A stretch of DNA of 64,000 bases, taken from the NCBI GenBank assembly GCA_041657425.1, contig JBBABY010000001.1, forward strand, positions 85,510 to 149,509. The letters are read 5' to 3'. The translations under genes were made by a program, and so were the position numbers. The notes under the pieces were generated by a model. The model saw only the letters and a program-made list of their open reading frames with translations. It was not told where the DNA came from and did not search any database. This DNA is from an archaeon. Its GTDB lineage: Archaea; Iainarchaeota; Iainarchaeia; Iainarchaeales; CSSED10-239. Below, one piece after another: positions 30,852-46,844 of the stretch (positions are counted from its first letter, which is position 1; each line of letters begins with the position of its first letter).

Positions 30852-31136
30852 TTATTTTTCGTATTTTTCTTTTAAATATGCGCCCAGTCTTATTATTTGT
30901 TTCTTCTTCTTTTCAATTAGTTTATCTCTGTAAGTTCTGCCTTTTGTAAGTAGTCCCATCTTAATAAGTTTTTCTTCACTTGCTTTTAATTTAGATAATT
31001 TGCCAACTTTGATATATTTATCTAATTCAGATCTCACTATAAAATTAAAATAATTATCCACTTCAGATTTATGTTTTTCTAATAATTGTTTTGCAACGAC
31101 TGTTCTTTTTGCTGGCCTTTTTAATATAGTGGGCAT
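30852..31136 (-). CDS. Small basic hypothetical protein (last gene of the nrd operon)
   Basis: 94 aa, Lys/Arg-rich, no recognisable motif. Starts 1 nt after the preceding gene. Confidence 0.4.
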   Translation of the reverse strand: MPTILKRPAKRTVVAKQLLEKHKSEVDNYFNFIVRSELDKYIKVGKLSKLKASEEKLIKMGLLTKGRTYRDKLIEKKKKQIIRLGAYLKEKYEK

Positions 31137-31447: not shown

Positions 31448-33487
31448 CTACAAACTCTTTAATCCTTTTCTATCTTCGGTATTGAATTCTTTTTGATGCC
31501 CATTTAGTTTCTCTGGAAGGAAAAGAGAATTTCCTATCTTATGACTTTCTATAATGAGGCTTTTTATTTCTTGCGCCGAGATATCTTCTGACAGATATAT
31601 TTTAGTATTTACTGTTCCATCAATATTTTTTGCAAATGCTGCTTGTAATCTTATTAAGAATAATGGTTCTATATGCTTTGCTTTTGGGAATCTCTTTTTA
31701 ATATCTTCTGGCACTGCAGATTCTACTTCTTCTTCAGACCAGTTTAGATTTAAATCAGAAACTAATAATGACAAATCTTTATTTATTTTATCTGACTTAT
31801 ATCCATTTACCCAAGATATTTGTTTATAATTCATCATTGGTTTTATTCCGTTACTGCATTCATTAGCTACAGAATAAAAATCTGAAGAGATTATAGAAAA
31901 AGTTGTTGAATTTCTAAGGCCATATTTCTTAATATTATTTCTAAGCTCTATCCAATCAATTGTAGGCATATTTTTTATTAATTTTTTAGAAATATCCATA
32001 TCATTAGAAAACAATGTTTTTTGAACAGGCGTTTTTTCAAAATTAAAGTTTGGAAGTTCATATTTACTTTTTATATATTTTAAAAATGGGCCCTTTGTTT
32101 TTGAAAGTTCTGTGGATTTAAGTTTTGAATAAAATCCTATGAAATCAGATAAAGAATCTGCAAAACAGATTGCATCATCGCTATTATAAGGGATATTTAA
32201 TTTTGAAAGAAGTGTTGCAAAACCAGTAATGGATAAATAAATCTGTCTAGATTCTTTTGCTTTCTGAGTATATTCTTCATTTATGTGTTTAGATAAATCT
32301 ATGGAATTATCTAAAAATTCTATTGCGTCCCAAGTGATTGATTTTAATCTCTGCCAATCAAATGTTTTAGAATTTGCTGTTGCATTAACTAATTTAGAAA
32401 CATCAATTACTCCACTAACAAAGGTATTATCTTCAAGAACGGGCTGATAGCCAACAGAAGATATTGCGTATTGATCATAATTAGTAAATGGATTTTTTTT
32501 ATTTATTGTGTCTATAAATATCAAATCAATTTTCTCTCCAGCGACTATTTTTGAAGAAACTAAATCAAATATTGTAGAAGGGCATATTTTTCTTATTTGC
32601 TCATCAACTGAATAATCTTGATTATTTATATAGTTTTCAATAAATCTATCAGGGATTAATATTGCAAAATTTTCTGAATCCTTAGATAGCCCGTTATTAA
32701 TAAATGAAATAATATCTGGATGCTCTATAGAAATATAAAATAAGTTATTGGAGGTATTTGTATTATACCCTATCATTGATTTTGCAGAAATAAATAAATC
32801 TGCGATTTTTAAAGGTCCGCATGCTTTCTTATTAATTGACTTTACTTTCTCCTTTTCTGATCTCACATTAGAAAGATTTACAGATACAGAAGAACCATAT
32901 TTTTGAACTTTACTTGAAAGTGCTAAATCATCAAATATACTTTCTAAAGTGTCCTTAATTTTAAAATTATATCCTGAAGATATTTGCTGATTAAGAGCAA
33001 TTTCTCGTAAAATTGTAGAACTTGGGTAAAAATATCCTTCTCTAATATAATCAAATATTTTTTTATTTAATTTTTCAGATTGGTTATTTTGTAATTTATT
33101 AATTTGCGTATTTATTGCTATTAATTTTGAAGAGGCACTGTCTGCATCTTCTATATTTAATATGTTTTTTAAAATTCTATCTTTCAATTCAGAATCGATT
33201 AATGATTGATCAGGTTTACTTTTTTTTAAAATATAAGACTGAAGTAATTCTGTTTGTGCTTCTTTAAGTAATGTATCTTTAATTATGCCCTCATAGTTTT
33301 CAAAAGATATTGATTCGGAGTGTTTTGCATTAACTTTATCAATTATTAAAAACGCTAATTTTTCTGCAAGATTTAAATTTGGTTCGCCAATATTGCACAT
33401 CGTTTCAAATAACATTATTGTGGTTTTTTCTTTTGAGAGTTCTTCTTTTTCTCCAGATTTATGCAAAATAGTGTTTACAAAAGTCAT
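31448..33487 (-). CDS. Ribonucleotide reductase class II-like alpha-chain paralog with N-terminal ATP-cone; the catalytic cysteines appear substituted (probable pseudoenzyme)
   Basis: ATP-cone-like N-terminus (ILHKSGEKEELSKEK...YEGIIKDTLLKEAQTELLQSYILKK). RNR barrel homology: YGSSVSVNLSNVRS, ISIEHPDIISFINN, SRQIYLSITGFATLLSKLNIPYNSDDA, RNSTTFSIISSDFYSVANECSNGIKP. The finger-loop region reads SSVGYQPVLEDNTFVSGVIDV where class II enzymes have [21 protein letters not shown]. Confidence 0.65.
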   Translation of the reverse strand: MTFVNTILHKSGEKEELSKEKTTIMLFETMCNIGEPNLNLAEKLAFLIIDKVNAKHSESISFENYEGIIKDTLLKEAQTELLQSYILKKSKPDQSLIDSELKDRILKNILNIEDADSASSKLIAINTQINKLQNNQSEKLNKKIFDYIREGYFYPSSTILREIALNQQISSGYNFKIKDTLESIFDDLALSSKVQKYGSSVSVNLSNVRSEKEKVKSINKKACGPLKIADLFISAKSMIGYNTNTSNNLFYISIEHPDIISFINNGLSKDSENFAILIPDRFIENYINNQDYSVDEQIRKICPSTIFDLVSSKIVAGEKIDLIFIDTINKKNPFTNYDQYAISSVGYQPVLEDNTFVSGVIDVSKLVNATANSKTFDWQRLKSITWDAIEFLDNSIDLSKHINEEYTQKAKESRQIYLSITGFATLLSKLNIPYNSDDAICFADSLSDFIGFYSKLKSTELSKTKGPFLKYIKSKYELPNFNFEKTPVQKTLFSNDMDISKKLIKNMPTIDWIELRNNIKKYGLRNSTTFSIISSDFYSVANECSNGIKPMMNYKQISWVNGYKSDKINKDLSLLVSDLNLNWSEEEVESAVPEDIKKRFPKAKHIEPLFLIRLQAAFAKNIDGTVNTKIYLSEDISAQEIKSLIIESHKIGNSLFLPEKLNGHQKEFNTEDRKGLKSL

Positions 33488-33506: not shown

Positions 33507-34166
33507 TTATCTTAACGTATACCTTTTATCCTCTTTTGATAACTCTCTAAATATTGTCGTTGGTAAATTATATTTTTTTATGGTATTCTTATTCACGAAA
33601 TCTTGGACGAACACAAGTTGTCCTTTTGTAGATTCTAACATTTTATTAAAACTATCAAATGTTAACTCTGGATGTGTTGTAACTCTAAGTTCGCATGGGA
33701 TCAATGATTGTTTTAATAATTCTAATGATTTTTTTATATTTTCTATCGGAACTTTTGTATATTTTGCATAATTGTCAAAACTATCCTTTAAGTCCATAGC
33801 AATATAATCTACTAATCTCTCTGCGATTACTTTTTTCAAAATTTCTGGATTTGATCCATTAGTATCTAATTTTACTAAATACCCTTTTGCTTTTATCTCT
33901 TTTATAAAATCTATTAATTCCTGCCCATAGATCGTTGGTTCCCCACCACTTAAAACTACAGCATCAATTAGTCCTTTTCTATTATCCAAGAAATAATAAA
34001 TTTCTTGAATATCTAGTTCTTTTTCGTATAATTCTTTTAATACTAATTGTTTATTGTAACAAAAACCGCAATTGAAATTACATCCTTTAAAAAATATAAT
34101 GCACGCAATTTTATTTGGATAATCAATAGTACTAAATTTCTCAATGGCGCCAATTTTTAATGTCAT
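33507..34166 (-). CDS. nrdG: Anaerobic ribonucleoside-triphosphate reductase activating protein (radical SAM)
   Basis: FFKGCNFNCGFCYN (CxxxCxxC), VVLSGGEPT. 219 aa, immediately downstream of the nrdD parts. Confidence 0.88.
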   Translation of the reverse strand: MTLKIGAIEKFSTIDYPNKIACIIFFKGCNFNCGFCYNKQLVLKELYEKELDIQEIYYFLDNRKGLIDAVVLSGGEPTIYGQELIDFIKEIKAKGYLVKLDTNGSNPEILKKVIAERLVDYIAMDLKDSFDNYAKYTKVPIENIKKSLELLKQSLIPCELRVTTHPELTFDSFNKMLESTKGQLVFVQDFVNKNTIKKYNLPTTIFRELSKEDKRYTLR

Positions 34167-34178
34167 TTTATTATCACA

Positions 34179-34322
34179 TTATTTTTCAGGAACATTAAAC
34201 AATTTTCTATCCTTATATTCTGCTTGCTTTCCGTAATTCCAAGCATCAACTCTTCTAACGTATCCCACAACCCTAGAATATATTTCACATTTTTGTCTTT
34301 TACATTCAGTTTCTTCGCTCAT
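34179..34322 (-). CDS. Stand-alone glycyl-radical domain of class III RNR (47 aa; not in the ORF track)
   Basis: Hand translation gives MSEETECKRQKCEIYSRVVGYVRRVDAWNYGKQAEYKDRKLFNVPEK*. It contains the RVxGY glycyl-radical motif and the WNxGKxxExxxR tail that normally end NrdD. The ATG is 21 nt after the nrdD stop, in a different frame, and is preceded by AAGGGGGT. Confidence 0.75.
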   Translation of the reverse strand: MSEETECKRQKCEIYSRVVGYVRRVDAWNYGKQAEYKDRKLFNVPEK

Positions 34323-34342: not shown

Positions 34343-37327
34343 TTATTCTTTAATATAACCTATTTCTGTATCACATTTTGGACAATACTCGTGCTCTCCA
34401 AATAGATATCCGTGTTTTGGACAAATAGAGAAAGTAGGAGTAAACGTAAAATATGGCAATTTATATTTGTTTGTTATTTTTTGAATTAATGATTTGATTG
34501 CTTCTTTAGATGGTTTCTTTTCTCCAATAAAGAAATGTATTACTGTGCCGCCGGTATATTTACATTGTAAATCATCTTGTAATTCTAATATTTCAAAAAT
34601 ATCAGATGTATAATTTACAGGTATTTGAGTTGAATTTGTATAATATGGTTGTGCTCCATCATTTTGAAAATTATTTTCATTTGCAACAATAATAGAAGGA
34701 AATTTCTTTTTATCATGGCTTGCAAATCTATAAGTTGTGCCTTCTCCAGGTGTTGCTTCTAAATTATATAAAGCCCCTGTATCTTCTTGATATTTCTGTA
34801 TCTTCTCTCTCATAAAATCCATAACTTTATTTGCAAATGCCGTTCCTTTAGGTGTGTAAATTTCCTCTCCTAAAAAATTAAGACAAGACTCATTCATTCC
34901 AAGTAAACCAATTGTCGAAAAATGATTCTTCCAATAACTTCCAAATCTATCTTTAATTGTTTTAAGATTATATTTAGAATAAGGGTATAATCCATCATCC
35001 GTATATTTTTCTACAATCTTTCTTTTGATATCTAATGATTTTCTTGAAAGATCCATTAAATGTCCTAAAGTTTCAAAATATTCTTCTTCAGTTTTTGTAA
35101 GATAACCTATTTGAGCAAGATTAATTGTTACAACACCAATTGAACCAGTCAAAGGATTTGATCCAAATAAACCTCCTCCTCTTTTCTGTAATTCTCTATT
35201 ATCAAGCCTCAATCTACAACACATGCTTCTGGCATCTTCTGGTTTCATATCAGAATTAACAAAATTTGCAAAGTAAGGCGTTCCATATTTTATTGTTAAA
35301 TCAATTAATTTATCTGCTAATGGACTATTCCATTCAAATTCTTTAGTAACATTTATGGTAGGTATTGGGAAAGAAAACATATTACCACCAGCATCTCCTT
35401 CTAACAACACATCGAGAAGTGCCATATTGAATATATCCATTTCTTTTGTAAATTCTCCATAGGTTTTATCTTGAGGCTTACCTCCAATTATTACTGGTTG
35501 ATCTTTAAGGGTTGAAGGAATTGTTAGATCAAGAGTAATATTACTAAATGGAGTATTTCCTGTGATAAATACTTTCCCATTTCTTTTAGCAATTACGGTT
35601 TCGTTATCTGTATTTGGACACCAAATTATTCCATTATAATCTACTTCTTTTATTTCTGTTATAGTTGTATCTTTGTGCTGTATTATTCTTAGAACAAATA
35701 TTGGTTTTTTACCTATTGTTGGTTTTCTTACTAAAGTTGTAAATCCATATCCTGCTAAGACGCACATATGCTGTAAACCATAGAGAATATCCACAGAAGT
35801 TGTAGAAATTTTAAATTCGTCGGTTCCATCTCCTTTATTGTATGTTTCTAAAAATAATCTTGCTTGTTTTTCATTAGCAGAAAATAATTCTACAGGTATA
35901 AATTTAATATTACTTTCGTCACTAAACCAAGAATGAACTAATCTCGAACTTGCTGCGTTTAACTTCAGATGATTAACAGGCAAACCTAAACCAACGTGCT
36001 TACTTTCAGAAAATTTTAATTTAAAATAATTCAATAGATCTTTTATTTCTTTATATTCTTTATTATTTTTTATTTCTGATTGATATAACTTTATATTCCT
36101 TGAATTTCTGTGCTTATGATAAGGTTGCTCTGAACTGCCTTCTGCAATAACCCACGCAACTAATTTAATTTTCTCTTCGTTCCAACTTATGCCTTTATTA
36201 TTGTTATTTCCTGCAATTGGAATAATGATTGGAGACTTCATTTTTTTTATATTCTCAACTTCTTCTAAAATGAATTTTTCTCCAACATTAAATAATTTTC
36301 TAACCATTCTATGTTTTGGAGAAATTAATTGATCCTGTATTCTATTTCTTACATTATACATTTTTCCTGAATATTCTCTTACAAATAGTTTCTTAATTGG
36401 CAAATCTTCTAGTTTTCCTGTTTTTATATTAAATGTTTTAATTATATTTCCAACTTTTAAATCCTGATGAGTTTGCCAACCATCTTCTGTTAATATTTCA
36501 GTATCTTCTGACATACATTGATAACCAACTCTAGTTGGTACATTCATATTGTAAATAAATTTTTCCAAATCTGCTTTTACTCTTGCATAATCTAGTTTAT
36601 CATAATAGATAAAGGGTGCAAGAAGTGTATCGAAATTACTAAATGCTTGAGCACCTGCAGCCTCTCCTTGTAAAGTATAAATAAAATTAACAATCTGACC
36701 TAGTGCTGTATCAAAATGTTTAGCTGGAGAGCATACAATTTTTCCTGGGCCTCCTCTAAAACCATTTTGTAAAACTGCCTGAAGATCCCAACCCACACAA
36801 TATGGACCAAGAGTACAAAGATCATGTATATGTAATTGTCTTTTTTCATGCGCCTCTTTTATTTCTGTAGGATATATTTTCTTTACCCAATAATCTGATA
36901 TTACTTTTGTAGATAGATAATTATTTAGACCTTGTAAAGAATAATCCATATTACTATTCTCTTTAACCTGCCAATCTGAAATATTAATATAACTTTCAAC
37001 CGCATTCGTACTATCTATTAAACTTGATATTTGTCTTATATCATCGTGTTGCTTTCTATAAATTACATAAGCTTTAACTAATTTTGTTAATCCTTCTTTT
37101 ATTAAAACATCTTCAACTATATCTTGAATATTATTTACGGTTGGCAATTTGTTATTTTCAAAATATTCTTGATTAATTGCATTATCTATTTTCTTAGTTA
37201 AATAATCTGCTAAATCTATATCTGGATTATCAATTGCATCTAATGCCTTTAAAATCGCCAATTTAATTTTATATATATTATAATCAATCTTCTCTTCTTT
37301 TCTATTAATTATTTGTTTTGCGTGCAT
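34343..37327 (-). CDS. nrdD: Anaerobic (class III) ribonucleoside-triphosphate reductase large fragment; contains an intein and lacks the glycyl-radical tail
   Basis: ATP-cone N-terminus. NrdD core motifs ARSMCCRLRLD, GGGLFGSNPLTGSIGVVTINL, and the Zn site CPKHGY..CPKCD at the end. The protein stops after TEIGYIKE, before any RVxGY motif. Confidence 0.9.
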   Translation of the reverse strand: MHAKQIINRKEEKIDYNIYKIKLAILKALDAIDNPDIDLADYLTKKIDNAINQEYFENNKLPTVNNIQDIVEDVLIKEGLTKLVKAYVIYRKQHDDIRQISSLIDSTNAVESYINISDWQVKENSNMDYSLQGLNNYLSTKVISDYWVKKIYPTEIKEAHEKRQLHIHDLCTLGPYCVGWDLQAVLQNGFRGGPGKIVCSPAKHFDTALGQIVNFIYTLQGEAAGAQAFSNFDTLLAPFIYYDKLDYARVKADLEKFIYNMNVPTRVGYQCMSEDTEILTEDGWQTHQDLKVGNIIKTFNIKTGKLEDLPIKKLFVREYSGKMYNVRNRIQDQLISPKHRMVRKLFNVGEKFILEEVENIKKMKSPIIIPIAGNNNNKGISWNEEKIKLVAWVIAEGSSEQPYHKHRNSRNIKLYQSEIKNNKEYKEIKDLLNYFKLKFSESKHVGLGLPVNHLKLNAASSRLVHSWFSDESNIKFIPVELFSANEKQARLFLETYNKGDGTDEFKISTTSVDILYGLQHMCVLAGYGFTTLVRKPTIGKKPIFVLRIIQHKDTTITEIKEVDYNGIIWCPNTDNETVIAKRNGKVFITGNTPFSNITLDLTIPSTLKDQPVIIGGKPQDKTYGEFTKEMDIFNMALLDVLLEGDAGGNMFSFPIPTINVTKEFEWNSPLADKLIDLTIKYGTPYFANFVNSDMKPEDARSMCCRLRLDNRELQKRGGGLFGSNPLTGSIGVVTINLAQIGYLTKTEEEYFETLGHLMDLSRKSLDIKRKIVEKYTDDGLYPYSKYNLKTIKDRFGSYWKNHFSTIGLLGMNESCLNFLGEEIYTPKGTAFANKVMDFMREKIQKYQEDTGALYNLEATPGEGTTYRFASHDKKKFPSIIVANENNFQNDGAQPYYTNSTQIPVNYTSDIFEILELQDDLQCKYTGGTVIHFFIGEKKPSKEAIKSLIQKITNKYKLPYFTFTPTFSICPKHGYLFGEHEYCPKCDTEIGYIKE
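35555..36517 (-). mobile_element. Intein (321 aa) with LAGLIDADG homing-endonuclease domain inside nrdD
   Basis: Extein junctions are NVPTRVGYQ / C...FITGN / TPFSNITLD. N-terminal Cys (block A CMSEDTEILTEDG), block B-like ISPKHRM, two LAGLIDADG motifs (KLVAWVIAEGSS, LFLETYNKGDGT), C-terminal Asn followed by Thr+1. Codon positions were checked on the DNA (tgt at 36515..36517, aat at 35555..35557 on the complement). Confidence 0.85.
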
Positions 37328-37390
37328 AGTTATCAGATTTAATTATAATTTAAAAAAAGTATAGAAGAGTAGTTCATTGGGTTTATAAAG

Positions 37391-37503
37391 GATATCGGTT
37401 TTGCCTGTTAAATCACATATAATGAGGATTAACAGGACGCACCATAGTCTATCGATTTACAAACTAAAGTGCTGCTTTGTTTTTATTTTGAAAACCGAAT
37501 ATC
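37391..37503. other. About 113-nt helix-closed structured element in the nrdD-xerA divergent intergenic region (candidate ncRNA or regulatory structure)
   Basis: Outer helix GATATCGGTTTT (37391..37402) pairs with AAAACCGAATATC (37491..37503) with one bulge. Inner perfect 8-bp hairpin CCTGTTAA (37404..37411) / TTAACAGG (37429..37436). Locally higher GC than the flanks. Confidence 0.3.
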
Positions 37504-42383: not shown

Positions 42384-42457
42384 GGATCTGTAGCTCAGCT
42401 TGGTAGAGCACGGGACTTTTAATCCCGGTGTCGAGGGTTCGAATCCCTCCAGGTTCA
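42384..42457 (+). tRNA. tRNA-Lys (TTT)
   Basis: Hand-folded cloverleaf: GGATCTG/CAGGTTC acceptor (two G:U pairs), anticodon loop CTTTTAA, T-loop TTCGAAT. Confidence 0.85.
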
Positions 42458-42470
42458 ATCCAAATATATT

Positions 42471-42544
42471 GGGCTCGTAGCTCAGCTTGGTAGAGCACAA
42501 GACTCTTAATCTTGGTGTCGAGGGTTCAAATCCCTTCGGGCTCA
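42471..42544 (+). tRNA. tRNA-Lys (CTT)
   Basis: GGGCTCG/CGGGCTC acceptor, anticodon loop CTCTTAA, T-loop TTCAAAT. Confidence 0.88.
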
Positions 42545-42564
42545 CATTTAGTAAAATCAGTTTT

Positions 42565-42638
42565 GAGACTGTAGCTCAGCCTGGGAGAGCAATAGGCTGA
42601 AGACCTATGTGTCGTGGGTCCAAATCCCATCAGTCTCA
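42565..42638 (+). tRNA. tRNA-Phe (GAA), with a non-canonical T-loop
   Basis: GAGACTG/CAGTCTC acceptor, anticodon loop CTGAAGA. The T-arm GTGGG-TCCAAAT-CCCAT has C at position 55 instead of the near-universal U. Confidence 0.8.
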
Positions 42639-42672
42639 TATTTTACTAAATTTAAAAGAAGAATCGGAAGCC

Positions 42673-45081
42673 ATGGAAAAAAACTTAACTCCAATGATGA
42701 AACAATATTTGGAAACCAAGAAAGAATTTCCAGACGGTATATTACTATTTAGGGCTGGAGACTTCTATGAGATGTTTTATGATGATGCAAAAATAGCATC
42801 GCAAATTCTTAATATAACTCTCACTAAAAGAGGAAAAAATGAAACAGAGGCACCATTAGCAGGCATACCTTATCACGCTCTTGATCCTTATGTATCTAAA
42901 CTAATTAAAGCAGGGAAAAAGGTAGTAATTTGTGAGCAAATAGAAGACCCAAAATTTGCAAAAGGATTAGTAAAGAGAGCAGTGACTAGAATTATAACTC
43001 CAAGTACTGTTTTTACAGACAACTATGAAAACAATTATCTTTGTTCAATTTCTAAACAAAAAGAAAGTTTTGGTTTTTCGTTAATTGATATAACTACTGG
43101 AGAATTCAAGACAAATACATTTAATACATTTAGTGAGATATTAAATGAATTAAGTTTAATTAAACCTAAAGAACTAATTATTACAAAAAATATATTAGAT
43201 AATTTTGATCAGATTAATTTAATAAAAAAATCAATTTCTAATGTAATTATTAATTATACAGATAATTTAGATATAGGAATTTCTAAAGCAAAATTATTAG
43301 ATCACTTTGGAGCAAGGTTTAATTCTTTTGGAATAATCGATCAACAGGCAATTGTTTCATCTTATAATGCAATTAAATATTTGAAAGACACTCAATTTTT
43401 AGATTTAAAATATATTAATACAATTAAAGAATACAATTTAAATAAATACATAAAAATCGACAGAAAGACTGCTGCAAATTTAGAGATTGTATCTAATTTA
43501 AGAGATAATTCTACAAACAATAGTTTATTTTCTATAATTAATAATACAAAGACAGCCTTAGGACACAGAAAATTATATTTCGATTTATTACATCCATTAA
43601 CAGATAAACAAGAAATCTTAGAATTAAATTTAGCAGTAAAAGAAATAAAAGAAAATGTATTTCTTCAAGAAGAGTTAAGTCAACAATTATCTTATATTGG
43701 AGATTTAGAGAAAATAATAAGTAAGATCGGATTTGGTAATTGTAATCCTAGAGATTTAATTGCTTTAAAACAAAGTTTACAGATTATTCCAAATATAAAA
43801 ACAACACTGCAAGATGGCGATTCAAATAAATTAAAAGAAATAAGAGAAAATCTAGTTAGTTTAAATAATATAGTTAAATTAATAGACGCAGGGGTTGTTG
43901 ATTCTCCTCCATTAAGTATAAGAGAAGGAGGATTTATTAAACCTCAATTTTCTAAAGAATTATATGATATTACTAATATAAATAAAACTACAAATTCTTG
44001 GTTAATGGAATACGAAGCAGAATTAAAACAAAAAACAAATATTAAATCTTTAAAATTAAAATTTAATAAAATATTTGGGTATTATATAGAAATTCCAAAA
44101 GCACAAGCAATTAATCTTCCAGAATATCTAGAAAGAAAGCAAACATTAGTTAATTGTGAAAGATATACGACTATAGAGTTAAGCGAAAAAGAATCTATGG
44201 TAATGCACGCAAAAGAAAGAAGAGAAGAACTAGAATATAGTATATTTTTAGAAATATGTAAAGAAATATTAAGTGATCAAGAATCAATAAGAGAGCTTGC
44301 AAAATATGTAGCTCAATTAGATGAATTATATTCTTTTGCTTATATAAGTAATAAAAATGATTATTGCATCCCGAAATTAGATAATTCAGACATCGTTCAA
44401 TTTAAAGATTTAAGGCATCCATTAATTGAACAACAACACTCCTTTATTCCAAATGATTGTAATTTAGATTTAAATAATAGGACTATGATAATTACTGGCC
44501 CTAATATGGCAGGAAAGAGTAGTTATATGAGAAGTGTATGTCTTTCACTAATTATTGGACACACAGGGTGTTTTATTCCTGCAACTGCTGCTCACATTGG
44601 AGAAATAGATGCAATTTATACTAGAGTTGGCGCATCTGACGATATAATTCATGGGCAAAGTACATTTCTTGTAGAGATGTCAGAGGTCGCTTATATTTTA
44701 AACAATGCCACAAAAGATAGTGTAGTTATTTTAGATGAAATAGGCAGAGGTACAAGTACATTTGATGGAATAAGTATTGCTTGGTCAGTTGTGAAATATT
44801 TTAATAACACAATAAAATGCAAAACTCTACTTGCAACTCATTATCATATATTAAATAAAATGGAAGAAACTAATTCAGGAATTTGCAATTATCATGTAAC
44901 TGCCAAAGAAGAAGGAGATAGTCTCCATTTTTATCACAAATTACAGAAAGGCGGAATTAATAAAAGTTATGGGATACAAGTTGCAAAATTAGCGGGTGTA
45001 AATAAAGAAATAATAGATAGTGCTTTAGCAATACAAAAAGATTTAGAAAATAATTCTTTTTTAAAAAAGAATGAATTGTGA
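42673..45081 (+). CDS. mutS: DNA mismatch repair protein MutS (bacterial MutS1 type)
   Basis: LTPMMKQYLETKKEFPDGILLFRAGDFYEMF, Walker A GPNMAGKSSYMR, DEIGRGTSTFDG. The track ORF start at 42607 lies inside tRNA-Phe, so the ATG at 42673 was chosen. Confidence 0.92.
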   Translation: MEKNLTPMMKQYLETKKEFPDGILLFRAGDFYEMFYDDAKIASQILNITLTKRGKNETEAPLAGIPYHALDPYVSKLIKAGKKVVICEQIEDPKFAKGLVKRAVTRIITPSTVFTDNYENNYLCSISKQKESFGFSLIDITTGEFKTNTFNTFSEILNELSLIKPKELIITKNILDNFDQINLIKKSISNVIINYTDNLDIGISKAKLLDHFGARFNSFGIIDQQAIVSSYNAIKYLKDTQFLDLKYINTIKEYNLNKYIKIDRKTAANLEIVSNLRDNSTNNSLFSIINNTKTALGHRKLYFDLLHPLTDKQEILELNLAVKEIKENVFLQEELSQQLSYIGDLEKIISKIGFGNCNPRDLIALKQSLQIIPNIKTTLQDGDSNKLKEIRENLVSLNNIVKLIDAGVVDSPPLSIREGGFIKPQFSKELYDITNINKTTNSWLMEYEAELKQKTNIKSLKLKFNKIFGYYIEIPKAQAINLPEYLERKQTLVNCERYTTIELSEKESMVMHAKERREELEYSIFLEICKEILSDQESIRELAKYVAQLDELYSFAYISNKNDYCIPKLDNSDIVQFKDLRHPLIEQQHSFIPNDCNLDLNNRTMIITGPNMAGKSSYMRSVCLSLIIGHTGCFIPATAAHIGEIDAIYTRVGASDDIIHGQSTFLVEMSEVAYILNNATKDSVVILDEIGRGTSTFDGISIAWSVVKYFNNTIKCKTLLATHYHILNKMEETNSGICNYHVTAKEEGDSLHFYHKLQKGGINKSYGIQVAKLAGVNKEIIDSALAIQKDLENNSFLKKNEL

Positions 45082-45089
45082 AAATTAAA

Positions 45090-46844
45090 ATGATAAAGAA
45101 ATTAAGTCAAGAAACAATTAATTTAATAAGTGCGGGAGAAGTTATAGAGGGCCCAAGCGATATATTAAAAGAATTAATTGAAAATTCTATTGATGCAGGA
45201 GCAAAATCTATTGTCATTAAATTAAAAAATTGCGGAATAGATTTAATCGAAATAAAAGATGACGGTTCGGGAATTAGTAAAGAAGATTTAGAGGTTTGTA
45301 CTCAAAGACACACCACAAGTAAACTAGAAAAAATTGATGACCTTTATTCAATAGCCACTTTTGGTTTTAGAGGAGAAGCATTATCAAGTATCAATTCAAT
45401 TTCTAAAATGGAGATTATCAGTACTGATAATGATGCTGGGCAAGGGTATATTTTAAGAAATGGCGAAATAAAATCAATTTCTTCTCCAAGAGGTACAATC
45501 ATAAAAATCGAAGATTTATTCTACAACGTCCCAGTAAGAAAGAAATTTCTAAAATCAAAAACATTTGAATTAGCTAAGGCAAACAACACAATACTAGAAT
45601 TTGTAATACAATATCCAGAAATTAGATTTCAGATATTCTCTGATAAAAAAGAAGATACTTATCCTAAAACCACTCCAGAAAATAGATATTCTCAGGTTTT
45701 TGGTAAAGATATATTGTCTAAAGTAAATACTATTGATCAAAAATCTGAAATTTTAAAAATAAGAGGAATAATAGCTAAACCTAAACATTATTTTTTTTAT
45801 CCCTCTAATTTTTTATATATTAATAAAAGACCAGTAATTAGTACACAGGTAAATAAGATTATTATTAATTCTTATAAAGACTATTTAATGACACACCAAA
45901 AGCCATTCTTTGTGTTGTTTATTGAACTTGATTCAAAGACAATAGATGTTAACATTCATCCTAAAAAAAGATTTGTAAAAATACAAAACGAATTTTTATT
46001 TAATTCCGGATTAAAAGAAATTATTAATTCTGTGCTTTTTTCAAATACGAAAGAAACAGTAGTTTCAGAAGACAATAGACAAATTACGGATTTTTTAGGT
46101 AATTCGTTTAATGTTGAATACCCTGTGAGTTCTAATAACTTAAATTCTCCAAATCAATTAGATTATTTAATAAAAGAGAATTCAGATATCAAAAATGAAT
46201 TAAAAAATAAAGATATATTTTATTTTACAAATAAAACAGAAGAGATTAGAAAAGTTGTGCTTGATGCACATGAAATAAACGAAATTGCGGGGCAAGTATT
46301 TGATACATTTATTGTATGTAAAACTCCTGATGGTTTATTGTTAATAGATCAACACGCTGCAGAAGAAAGAATAAATTTAGAAAAAAATAGATTAGCATAT
46401 TCTTCTGAATTTAAAATACAAAATTTAGTTATTCCCCAAAAATTAGATTTTATTTCGGATATTCAAAAAGAGTTTATATTAATTAATAAAAAGTTATTGG
46501 CAGATTTAGGATTTACTATTGAATTAAAAAGAGAGAGATTATATTTAATCACAATTCCTGAATTTTTAGAGCATTATTTCGATTATAAGTTTTTTTTAGA
46601 ACTGCTTCAAAATATTGAAGAATCAAATAATTTTGATATTGCCAAAATTAAAGATAAGATTTTAAAATTGAAATCCTGTAAAGAATCAATAAAAGCAAAC
46701 GCTCCTCTAAGCATTTCTCAAATATATAATTTGATTGTAAATTTAGATAAGTGTCAAGACAAAGGGATATGCGCACACGGAAGGCCCACTTATATTTTGA
46801 TTAATAAAAAAGAATTAAATAAAATGTTTAAAAGGATTATTTAA
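45090..46844 (+). CDS. mutL: DNA mismatch repair protein MutL
   Basis: GHKL ATPase motifs (ISAGEVIEGPSDILKELIENSIDAG, DDGSGI, FGFRGEAL). C-terminal dimerisation/endonuclease region (QHAAEERINLE, CAHGRPT). Confidence 0.9.
   Translation: MIKKLSQETINLISAGEVIEGPSDILKELIENSIDAGAKSIVIKLKNCGIDLIEIKDDGSGISKEDLEVCTQRHTTSKLEKIDDLYSIATFGFRGEALSSINSISKMEIISTDNDAGQGYILRNGEIKSISSPRGTIIKIEDLFYNVPVRKKFLKSKTFELAKANNTILEFVIQYPEIRFQIFSDKKEDTYPKTTPENRYSQVFGKDILSKVNTIDQKSEILKIRGIIAKPKHYFFYPSNFLYINKRPVISTQVNKIIINSYKDYLMTHQKPFFVLFIELDSKTIDVNIHPKKRFVKIQNEFLFNSGLKEIINSVLFSNTKETVVSEDNRQITDFLGNSFNVEYPVSSNNLNSPNQLDYLIKENSDIKNELKNKDIFYFTNKTEEIRKVVLDAHEINEIAGQVFDTFIVCKTPDGLLLIDQHAAEERINLEKNRLAYSSEFKIQNLVIPQKLDFISDIQKEFILINKKLLADLGFTIELKRERLYLITIPEFLEHYFDYKFFLELLQNIEESNNFDIAKIKDKILKLKSCKESIKANAPLSISQIYNLIVNLDKCQDKGICAHGRPTYILINKKELNKMFKRII

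Follow-up and report, generated by a model that had tools for sequence, protein, structure and literature searches.

The question raised by this locus is why a gene derived from one class of ribonucleotide reductase (RNR) should be kept, with every catalytic residue replaced, inside the operon of another class. The locus lies in a stretch of 64,000 nucleotides (nt) from an archaeon of the order Iainarchaeales (lineage CSSED10-239; assembly GCA_041657425.1, contig JBBABY010000001.1, positions 85,510 to 149,509), hereafter referred to as the window. In it an open reading frame (ORF) of 679 amino acids (aa), here termed pseudo-RNR, follows nrdG, the activase gene of a class III RNR. A first-pass annotation made from the letters of the sequence had proposed that this ORF specifies a class II-like RNR barrel that has lost its catalytic residues, that it is maintained rather than decaying, and that it may serve the co-encoded class III enzyme as a nucleotide-sensing or regulatory partner. 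The analysis described here established that pseudo-RNR belongs to a narrow but real protein family, which is predicted to be incapable of ribonucleotide reduction and is very likely maintained as a pseudoenzyme; the reading that we prefer, albeit tentatively, is that it would serve the class III system as a non-catalytic nucleotide sensor.

The position of the ORF was confirmed, its start being located, on the strand that also carries nrdG, 19 nt past the nrdG stop codon, with a GGAG-like Shine-Dalgarno sequence filling part of the gap, and all of the RNR motifs previously quoted for its translation are indeed found there. The assignment to an RNR barrel of the class II type was borne out by profile searches and by structure prediction alike: Pfam Ribonuc_red_lgC (PF02867) matches the protein with an E value of 6.5e-55, the closest solved relative by sequence is the NrdJ protein of Thermotoga maritima (1xje; phmmer E 1.5e-28), and an AlphaFold2 model built with 27 homologues (predicted local distance difference test score 84.6; predicted template modelling score 0.86) retrieved T. 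maritima NrdJ structures as its best matches in the Protein Data Bank when searched with Foldseek (E ~4e-31, template modelling score 0.64-0.78). The only domains found are an ATP-cone-like domain and the RNR barrel, with no match to Zn_ribbon_NrdR, and scans of the protein against Pfam, NCBIfam and PADLOC revealed neither a different catalytic motif nor the signature of a cofactor. The scores required of NrdJ equivalogs were missed (207.0 versus 399.95 for TIGR02504, NrdJ_Z, and 208.8 versus 961 for NF006417), the N-terminal helical domain PF00317 gave no match, and no canonical NrdJ shares more than 29% identity with the protein. Because pseudo-RNR fails five of the six defining NrdJ features tested, it should not be filed as a NrdJ enzyme.

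The catalytic positions were mapped by phmmer alignment to 1xje and by MAFFT alignments with canonical NrdJ sequences. Both methods place Gly172 at the position of T. maritima Cys134, and MAFFT reproduces the gapless register from which all catalytic residues had been read as substituted, with Asn320 replaced by Ser343, Cys322 by Val345, Glu324 by Tyr347 and Cys333 by Phe356. The phmmer and MAFFT registers differ by a single residue at the tip of the finger loop and are the same elsewhere, and the hairpin of the model, in which DSSP assigns strands to residues 340-342 and 349-351 and a tip reading SSVGYQ to residues 343-348, fits both. This shift is immaterial because none of the five cysteines of pseudo-RNR (31, 223, 302, 441 and 544) lies within residues 303-440, and another register that would restore the catalytic triad was rejected on the same ground. 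The only cysteines conserved in the family are C31 (93%) and C223 (96%), of which neither is invariant and neither stands at a catalytic position. Across the family the Cys134 column is occupied by Gly or Ser, that of Asn320 by Ser, that of Cys322 by Val or Ile (Lys in one member) and that of Cys333 by Phe, while the Glu324 column of the 28 clade sequences holds Tyr, Phe, Leu, Met or Asn. The catalytic residues are thus replaced in all 28 clade sequences, and as no member retains them the loss is ancestral to the family.

The extent of the remodelling was assessed on 91 alignment columns, each with a conservation of 85% or more among 93 canonical NrdJ sequences; the family retains 32 of these columns and has lost 48. 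The lost columns include those of the five catalytic residues as well as the GGG motif, loop 2, APTG, GLGVMG, SKT.N, KG.T.YR and the C-terminal Cys, the last of these being missing in every clade member. Loop 2, canonically QGG.RRGA, reads GYNTNTSNN in pseudo-RNR. The apical phosphate loop, for which over 97% of NrdJ proteins have either P-N-S-P or P-A-G-R (PMC8365446), is P-S-S-T in pseudo-RNR and P-S-T-N or P-S-I-N in a divergent subgroup, and the distal phosphate loop has changed from APTG(T/S)IS to (S/F)SDFYS. The betaJ strand, which carries the KG.T.YR motif, lines the adenosyl pocket (PMC9531940), and its canonical residues are replaced together with SKT.N near the same pocket. With the catalytic, substrate and cofactor positions altered in this manner, pseudo-RNR would be incapable of ribonucleotide reduction.

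A search of 5.8 billion proteins recovered 28 homologous clusters at 35-100% identity, after which identity falls sharply to canonical NrdJ at 28% or less; 27 of these clusters are 645-727 aa in length and one is a fragment. When 1.84 billion representatives were searched exhaustively with a profile, only five sequences from the family were returned (P0018, P0024 and P0093, together with the fragments P0028 and P0098). The family is present in nine GTDB species, all of one collinear lineage, and no member was found in a search of IMG/VR. Selection on the gene was estimated as the ratio of nonsynonymous to synonymous substitution rates (dN/dS) by the method of Nei and Gojobori. In the least saturated pair of loci, L001/L005 (dS 0.80), dN/dS was 0.072 for pseudo-RNR, as compared with 0.112 (nrdG) and 0.038 (nrdD), and in other pairs the ratio for pseudo-RNR ranged from 0.05 to 0.2. 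Such values point to purifying selection on pseudo-RNR. Identity across loci is 37-69% for pseudo-RNR, 70-91% for NrdD and 55-70% for NrdG, so that pseudo-RNR evolves faster than NrdD and at about the pace of NrdG. The faster divergence relative to NrdD is what might be expected of a decaying or functionless remnant, yet gene decay is rejected because the orthologues are intact and dN/dS is as low as that of nrdG. The related notion of an active RNR that was merely misaligned is contradicted by the want of any cysteine in residues 303-440 and by the model, which puts SSVGYQ at the finger tip; we accord next to no likelihood to either form of this explanation. The first-pass annotation had named a rescued catalytic triad, fragmentary orthologues or missing linkage to nrdDG as findings that would count against it, and none of these was found. 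Its view of the ORF as a maintained pseudoenzyme therefore stands, and we consider it very likely to be correct.

Catalytic deficiency was also encountered outside the family, in six metagenomic NrdJ-like proteins with incomplete catalytic sets (P0101, P0103, P0129, P0132, P0222 and P0229), which share the class II barrel and in which the thiyl Cys is substituted along with other catalytic residues. In a rough neighbour-joining tree the nearest neighbour of the family is P0101, a fully Cys-less singleton that is followed in similarity by canonical NrdJ proteins at 40% identity and whose gene lies beside those for an epimerase and RadA, away from nrdDG. Its catalytic residues seem to have been lost independently, and the loss does not seem to mark P0101 as a member of the family. 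Independent recurrence of the linkage between a pseudo-RNR and nrdDG was sought among the deficient NrdJ-like relatives and was not found, the context examined being that of P0101. A wider pseudo-RNR family tied to nrdDG was consequently rejected, since the other deficient NrdJ-like sequences are scattered and P0101 is unlinked. Three further metagenomic NrdJ-like proteins (P0104, P0175 and P0210) are catalytically incomplete as well; among all nine, some are without the thiyl Cys, whereas others retain the thiyl Cys and Glu and are without the redox pair. P0094 (1600 aa) and P0095 (1351 aa) each have two complete tandem NrdJ modules in one polypeptide; every module carries LS(G/S/K)CF and N(P/V)CGEQPL(L/F)P(Y/F)ESCNL, and these proteins would be natural fusions in which one class II RNR copy follows another head to tail.

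The retained canonical columns include D179 and R209 and the structural core motifs HPD, FLDN, RN and PY.S. By phmmer mapping Asp179 corresponds to T. maritima Asp141 and Arg209 to Arg171, residues which, like Asp232 and Arg262 of Escherichia coli R1, we take to be those that contact the sugar and phosphates of the deoxynucleoside triphosphate (dNTP) specificity effector. The four most conserved 15-aa segments of the family are residues 515-529 (LRNNIKKYGLRNSTT), 34-48 (GEPNLNLAEKLAFLI, inside the ATP-cone-like domain), 462-476 and 209-223 (RSEKEKVKSINKKAC), the last coinciding with the equivalent of loop 1, which in E. coli spans residues 259-278 (PMC4728125). For the earlier description of the N-terminus as ATP-cone-like there is evidence on both sides. 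In its favour, 24 of 27 clade members match Pfam ATP-cone (PF03477) with an E value of 0.01 or lower (best 3.2e-9), and residues 6-87 of the model form a beta-hairpin and four helices, the secondary structure expected of an ATP-cone; against it, the match of the window protein is weak (E 0.019; 15.9 bits versus a cut-off of 25.8), the canonical KRDG reads HKSG, and the Lys-Arg dyad varies across the clade. The invariant loop between helix 1 and helix 2, GEPNLNLAEKL, ranks second in conservation among the segments of the family and suggests a new, possibly protein-binding surface. The former active site and its surroundings also contain several polar residues that are invariant in the family (S343, Q348, E255, D362, S364, D536 and S539). 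Selection appears to preserve the barrel scaffold and the dimer-interface helices, Asp179/Arg209, loop 1 and the ATP-cone-derived N-terminus.

The placement of the gene in a class III nrd operon was likewise upheld, as both partners reach the equivalog scores (NrdD 954.8 bits on NF006126, cut-off 548; NrdG 179.6 bits on TIGR02495, cut-off 131), and the neighbours of pseudo-RNR by these measures constitute a genuine class III system. The features of the cluster and of pseudo-RNR itself are compiled in Table 1. Gaps between the genes of the cluster are 1-25 nt in the window and a purine-rich, Shine-Dalgarno-like stretch precedes each start codon. The best-conserved block across eight aligned nrdD upstream regions is the BRE/TATA-like (transcription factor B recognition element and TATA box) sequence AAAACCGATA(T/G)CCTTTATAAAC, to which we would assign the promoter of the nrd cluster. 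Pseudo-RNR is probably part of one transcription unit with nrdD, the glycyl-radical peptide gene and nrdG, because these genes share a strand, are tightly spaced and are preceded by one conserved promoter-like element. Immediately 5' of the BRE/TATA-like block (AAAACCGATATCCTTTATAAAC), within the region 37381..37436 (-), an inverted repeat CCTGTTAA-N17-TTAACAGG was observed, which is kept in part in relatives as CTGTAA...TTACAG and may be an operator for some regulator.

Table 1. Positions of the nrd cluster, its flanking genes and the mapped elements of pseudo-RNR in the window
Feature	Position	Strand	Basis or remarks
Pseudo-RNR gene (679 aa)	31448..33487	-	ORF list; class II (NrdJ)-derived, PF02867 match
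ATP-cone-derived N-terminal domain of pseudo-RNR, residues 1-95	33203..33487	-	Pfam ATP-cone and model topology
Residues 209-225 (RSEKEKVKSINKKACGP), counterpart of loop 1 in the dNTP specificity site	32813..32863	-	Mapping and strong family conservation
Finger-loop hairpin, residues 340-351	32435..32470	-	DSSP of model and alignments; tip SSVGYQ replaces NPCGE(Q/I)
nrdG, radical-SAM activase of class III RNR	33507..34166	-	TIGR02495 (NrdG2); Radical_SAM E 1.7e-21
Glycyl-radical peptide, 47 aa, stand-alone ORF	34179..34322	-	SRVVGY; NF006126 positions 646-683 of 684
nrdD, large part, 994 aa, with ATP-cone and intein	34343..37327	-	NF006126; Pfam NRDD E 2.1e-167; ATP-cone E 3e-13
Intein in nrdD, about residues 271-591	~35555..36517	-	Weak intein_Nterm match at residues 271-332
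BRE/TATA-like element (AAAACCGATATC CTTTATAAAC)	37381..37403	-	54-76 nt upstream of nrdD start
2TM protein, 94 aa	31138..31422	-	Pfam 2TM E 5.9e-07; 25 nt downstream of pseudo-RNR
Basic protein, 94 aa, last in same-strand cluster	30852..31136	-	1 nt after 2TM gene

The class III enzyme encoded here is itself unusual. The NrdD ORF ends at position 651 of the 684 positions of NF006126, before the glycyl-radical motif, and the SRVVGY sequence is found instead on the separate 47-aa ORF, which has its own ribosome-binding site and represents the detached C-terminus of NrdD; on this evidence NrdD in this lineage is naturally split, a condition for which no description was found in the searched literature. 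The split is kept in all related loci (L001 and L004-L013), with a junction that varies between small gaps and overlaps of 4-17 nt, and a split NrdD was also seen in L088-L092. Stand-alone glycyl-radical peptides make up 82 clusters and are not confined to this lineage, being found for instance in a Falkowbacteria genome and on a TARA marine scaffold, and split-nrdD operons devoid of pseudo-RNR are present in four other lineages. In three of these four operons the gene for the ATP-cone repressor NrdR is found immediately upstream, and no NrdR was seen in the available flanks of the pseudo-RNR loci, so that the complementary distribution of NrdR and pseudo-RNR is suggestive in what is a small sample. 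The intein listed in Table 1 was delimited by intein-free NrdD orthologues (L001, L004, L008, L009 and L012), which align to residues 1-270 and 592-994; a nrdD intein is also present in L005, L006, L007 and L010, and the 905-aa NrdD ORF of L002/L013 suggests a different or differently sized insertion. As a separate observation, the NrdR encoded upstream of the split nrdD in L091 (3018..3455) is of the bacterial type, with Zn-ribbon and ATP-cone, and its contig carries Rpb5, Rpb2 and Rpb1, archaeal/eukaryotic-type RNA polymerase genes that suggest the occurrence of NrdR in an archaeon.

The order nrdD, glycyl-radical peptide of 44-50 aa, nrdG and pseudo-RNR was the same in all 12 loci compared, with intergenic gaps of about 5-32 nt in related loci, and further loci agree. 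The wider neighbourhood is collinear as well, with XerA, PRC and TFIIE on one side and CDC48, Top1 and AsnC on the other. In the light of this arrangement we favour the reading, at a rough probability of 0.35-0.4, that pseudo-RNR is a non-catalytic, nucleotide-sensing accessory of the class III system, a proposal that rests on the operon position, on the retained Asp/Arg pair and loop 1, and on the ATP-cone-like domain. Pseudo-RNR would in that case bind dNTPs at the retained remnant of the specificity site, its remodelled ATP-cone might bind adenine nucleotides or a protein partner, and the protein would then report or buffer dNTP levels or modulate the activity of NrdD/NrdG. A more specific version of this proposal, according to which pseudo-RNR, a class II barrel pared down to its dNTP specificity site and a remodelled ATP-cone, would be the first dedicated non-catalytic allosteric subunit of a class III RNR, sensing nucleotide pools, controlling NrdD or NrdG in trans and replacing NrdR-type control in this lineage, is rather unlikely. 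A number of points weigh against an accessory role in sensing. The conserved gene order partly reflects the shared ancestry of one lineage and is non-independent evidence, the linkage being the weaker because a single lineage is involved and the whole neighbourhood is collinear. Asp179 and Arg209 could persist for structural reasons alone, and loop 2, which in real RNRs gives main-chain contacts to the effector base (PMC3267527), is wholly remodelled in pseudo-RNR. Canonical ATP/dATP binding by the N-terminus is doubtful because the Lys-Arg of KRDG varies across the family. NrdD has an ATP-cone and a specificity site of its own, making the need for a sensor in trans less than obvious, and P0101, the one other fully Cys-less relative whose context was examined, is not linked to nrdDG.

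Several of these points could equally be claimed for a structural or moonlighting pseudoenzyme with no tie to sensing or to NrdD, which would have descended from an ancestral nrdJ that happened to lie beside nrdDG, lost catalysis and was taken up for another task, for example as a scaffold or binding partner, and whose present position would be historical. The collinear neighbourhood, by which linkage says little about function, is compatible with such a history, as are the eroded Lys-Arg dyad of the ATP-cone and the family-specific nature of the highly conserved segments 515-529, 34-48 and 462-476, for which no nucleotide-binding role is known; the R1 homologues of herpesviruses provide a precedent for dead RNR subunits with unrelated roles. 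The tight same-strand spacing, the Shine-Dalgarno-like sequences and the single promoter-like element point instead to co-expression with nrdDG, and loop 1 and the Asp/Arg pair have been selectively kept while other ligand sites were erased, for which reason we regard this explanation as unlikely, though with a real chance of being right. The strong selection and the invariant polar residues in and around the former active site might alternatively indicate a new enzyme on the old barrel, performing non-radical nucleotide chemistry or adenosylcobalamin chemistry in which the 5'-deoxyadenosyl radical acts on a substrate directly and dispenses with the thiyl relay. The loss of both substrate-phosphate loops, of the adenosyl-pocket residues of betaJ and of SKT.N, coupled with the negative motif and cofactor scans in Pfam, NCBIfam and PADLOC, renders this improbable. 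That pseudo-RNR holds or chaperones the detached 47-aa peptide or NrdG is an idea to which its constant co-occurrence with split NrdD in this lineage lends some appeal, as does the class II pocket above the finger loop, which corresponds in position to the insertion site of the glycyl-radical domain in class III enzymes (a comparison supported in part by PMC9531940). Split operons without pseudo-RNR nonetheless exist in at least four other lineages, so the split enzyme does not need pseudo-RNR, and a holder function is accordingly judged highly improbable.

The setting of the cluster was also considered with regard to the origin of pseudo-RNR. The window has a low GC content (25-33%), which at most hints at a DPANN-type archaeon, carries genes that confirm its archaeal nature (PolD DP2, RtcB, an Elp3-like protein and XerA) and contains four tRNA genes and no rRNA gene. 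A viral or mobile origin was rejected, given that no family member was found in IMG/VR and that the 'integrase' encoded next to the cluster proved to be XerA, a housekeeping protein of archaea (NF040815, 271 bits; cut-off 220). Membership of a defence system was likewise dismissed, as pseudo-RNR and the two small proteins encoded downstream gave no PADLOC match. The first of these small genes, 2TM, is found downstream of pseudo-RNR in L001, L005-L008, L010 and L012 as well; for the basic 94-aa protein, neither Pfam, NCBIfam and PADLOC nor BLASTP against the related loci gave a match. Elsewhere in the window, at 42607..46844 and 42384..42638 on the + strand, three clustered tRNA genes are followed directly by adjoining genes for bacterial-type MutS and MutL; the MutS ORF as listed begins within the third tRNA, and its real start codon is probably further downstream.

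Comparison with known systems places pseudo-RNR at some distance from each of them. With the dimeric class II NrdJ of T. maritima (1xje, 3o0o) it shares the ten-stranded alpha/beta barrel and the finger hairpin, and many archaeal NrdJ proteins have an ATP-cone ahead of the barrel just as pseudo-RNR does; what sets pseudo-RNR apart from the T. maritima enzyme is the lack of the five catalytic residues, of the GGG motif, loop 2 and the phosphate loops, and of the betaJ residues and the Cys tail. The betaherpesvirus R1 homologues, murine cytomegalovirus M45 and human cytomegalovirus UL45, are catalytically inactive yet conserved and have a non-enzymatic role. Like pseudo-RNR they are homologues of the RNR large subunit that have been retained minus their catalytic residues; however, they are class I-derived, viral and act on cell-death and innate-immunity signalling of the host, whereas pseudo-RNR is class II-derived, cellular and encoded in a class III operon. 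Yeast Rnr4, a non-catalytic paralogue of the beta-subunit that heterodimerises with Rnr2, resembles the role proposed for pseudo-RNR in being an RNR pseudoenzyme retained in support of an active enzyme. Rnr4 partners a protein of its own class, while pseudo-RNR is an alpha-type class II barrel encoded beside a class III enzyme. NrdR is, in common with pseudo-RNR, non-catalytic, ATP-cone-bearing and encoded beside nrd genes, but it possesses a Zn-ribbon, whereas pseudo-RNR has no recognisable DNA-binding domain and lies downstream rather than upstream of nrdD. To our knowledge, dead RNR homologues are otherwise either viral (M45/UL45) or eukaryotic and of the beta type (Rnr4). In agreement with the first-pass annotation, which knew of no such system, the searched literature yielded no description of a conserved, catalytically dead prokaryotic RNR large subunit, of a Cys-less NrdJ or of an association of either with nrdDG, and sequences of this kind are not treated in a large study of RNR phylogeny.

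The family has an immediate bearing on genome annotation, as some sources label its genes 'ribonucleoside-diphosphate reductase alpha', which could wrongly credit these small-genome archaea with a vitamin B12-dependent RNR. RNRs are among the best-studied allosteric enzymes, and the family amounts to a natural dissection of the class II scaffold, in which the catalytic, substrate, loop 2 and cofactor sites have been erased while a remnant of the effector site and an ATP-cone-like domain were kept. If dNTP binding by pseudo-RNR or regulation of NrdD proves true, the family would add an extra layer to the control of the dNTP pool in these organisms, and would provide a natural 'specificity-site-only' RNR for studies of allostery.

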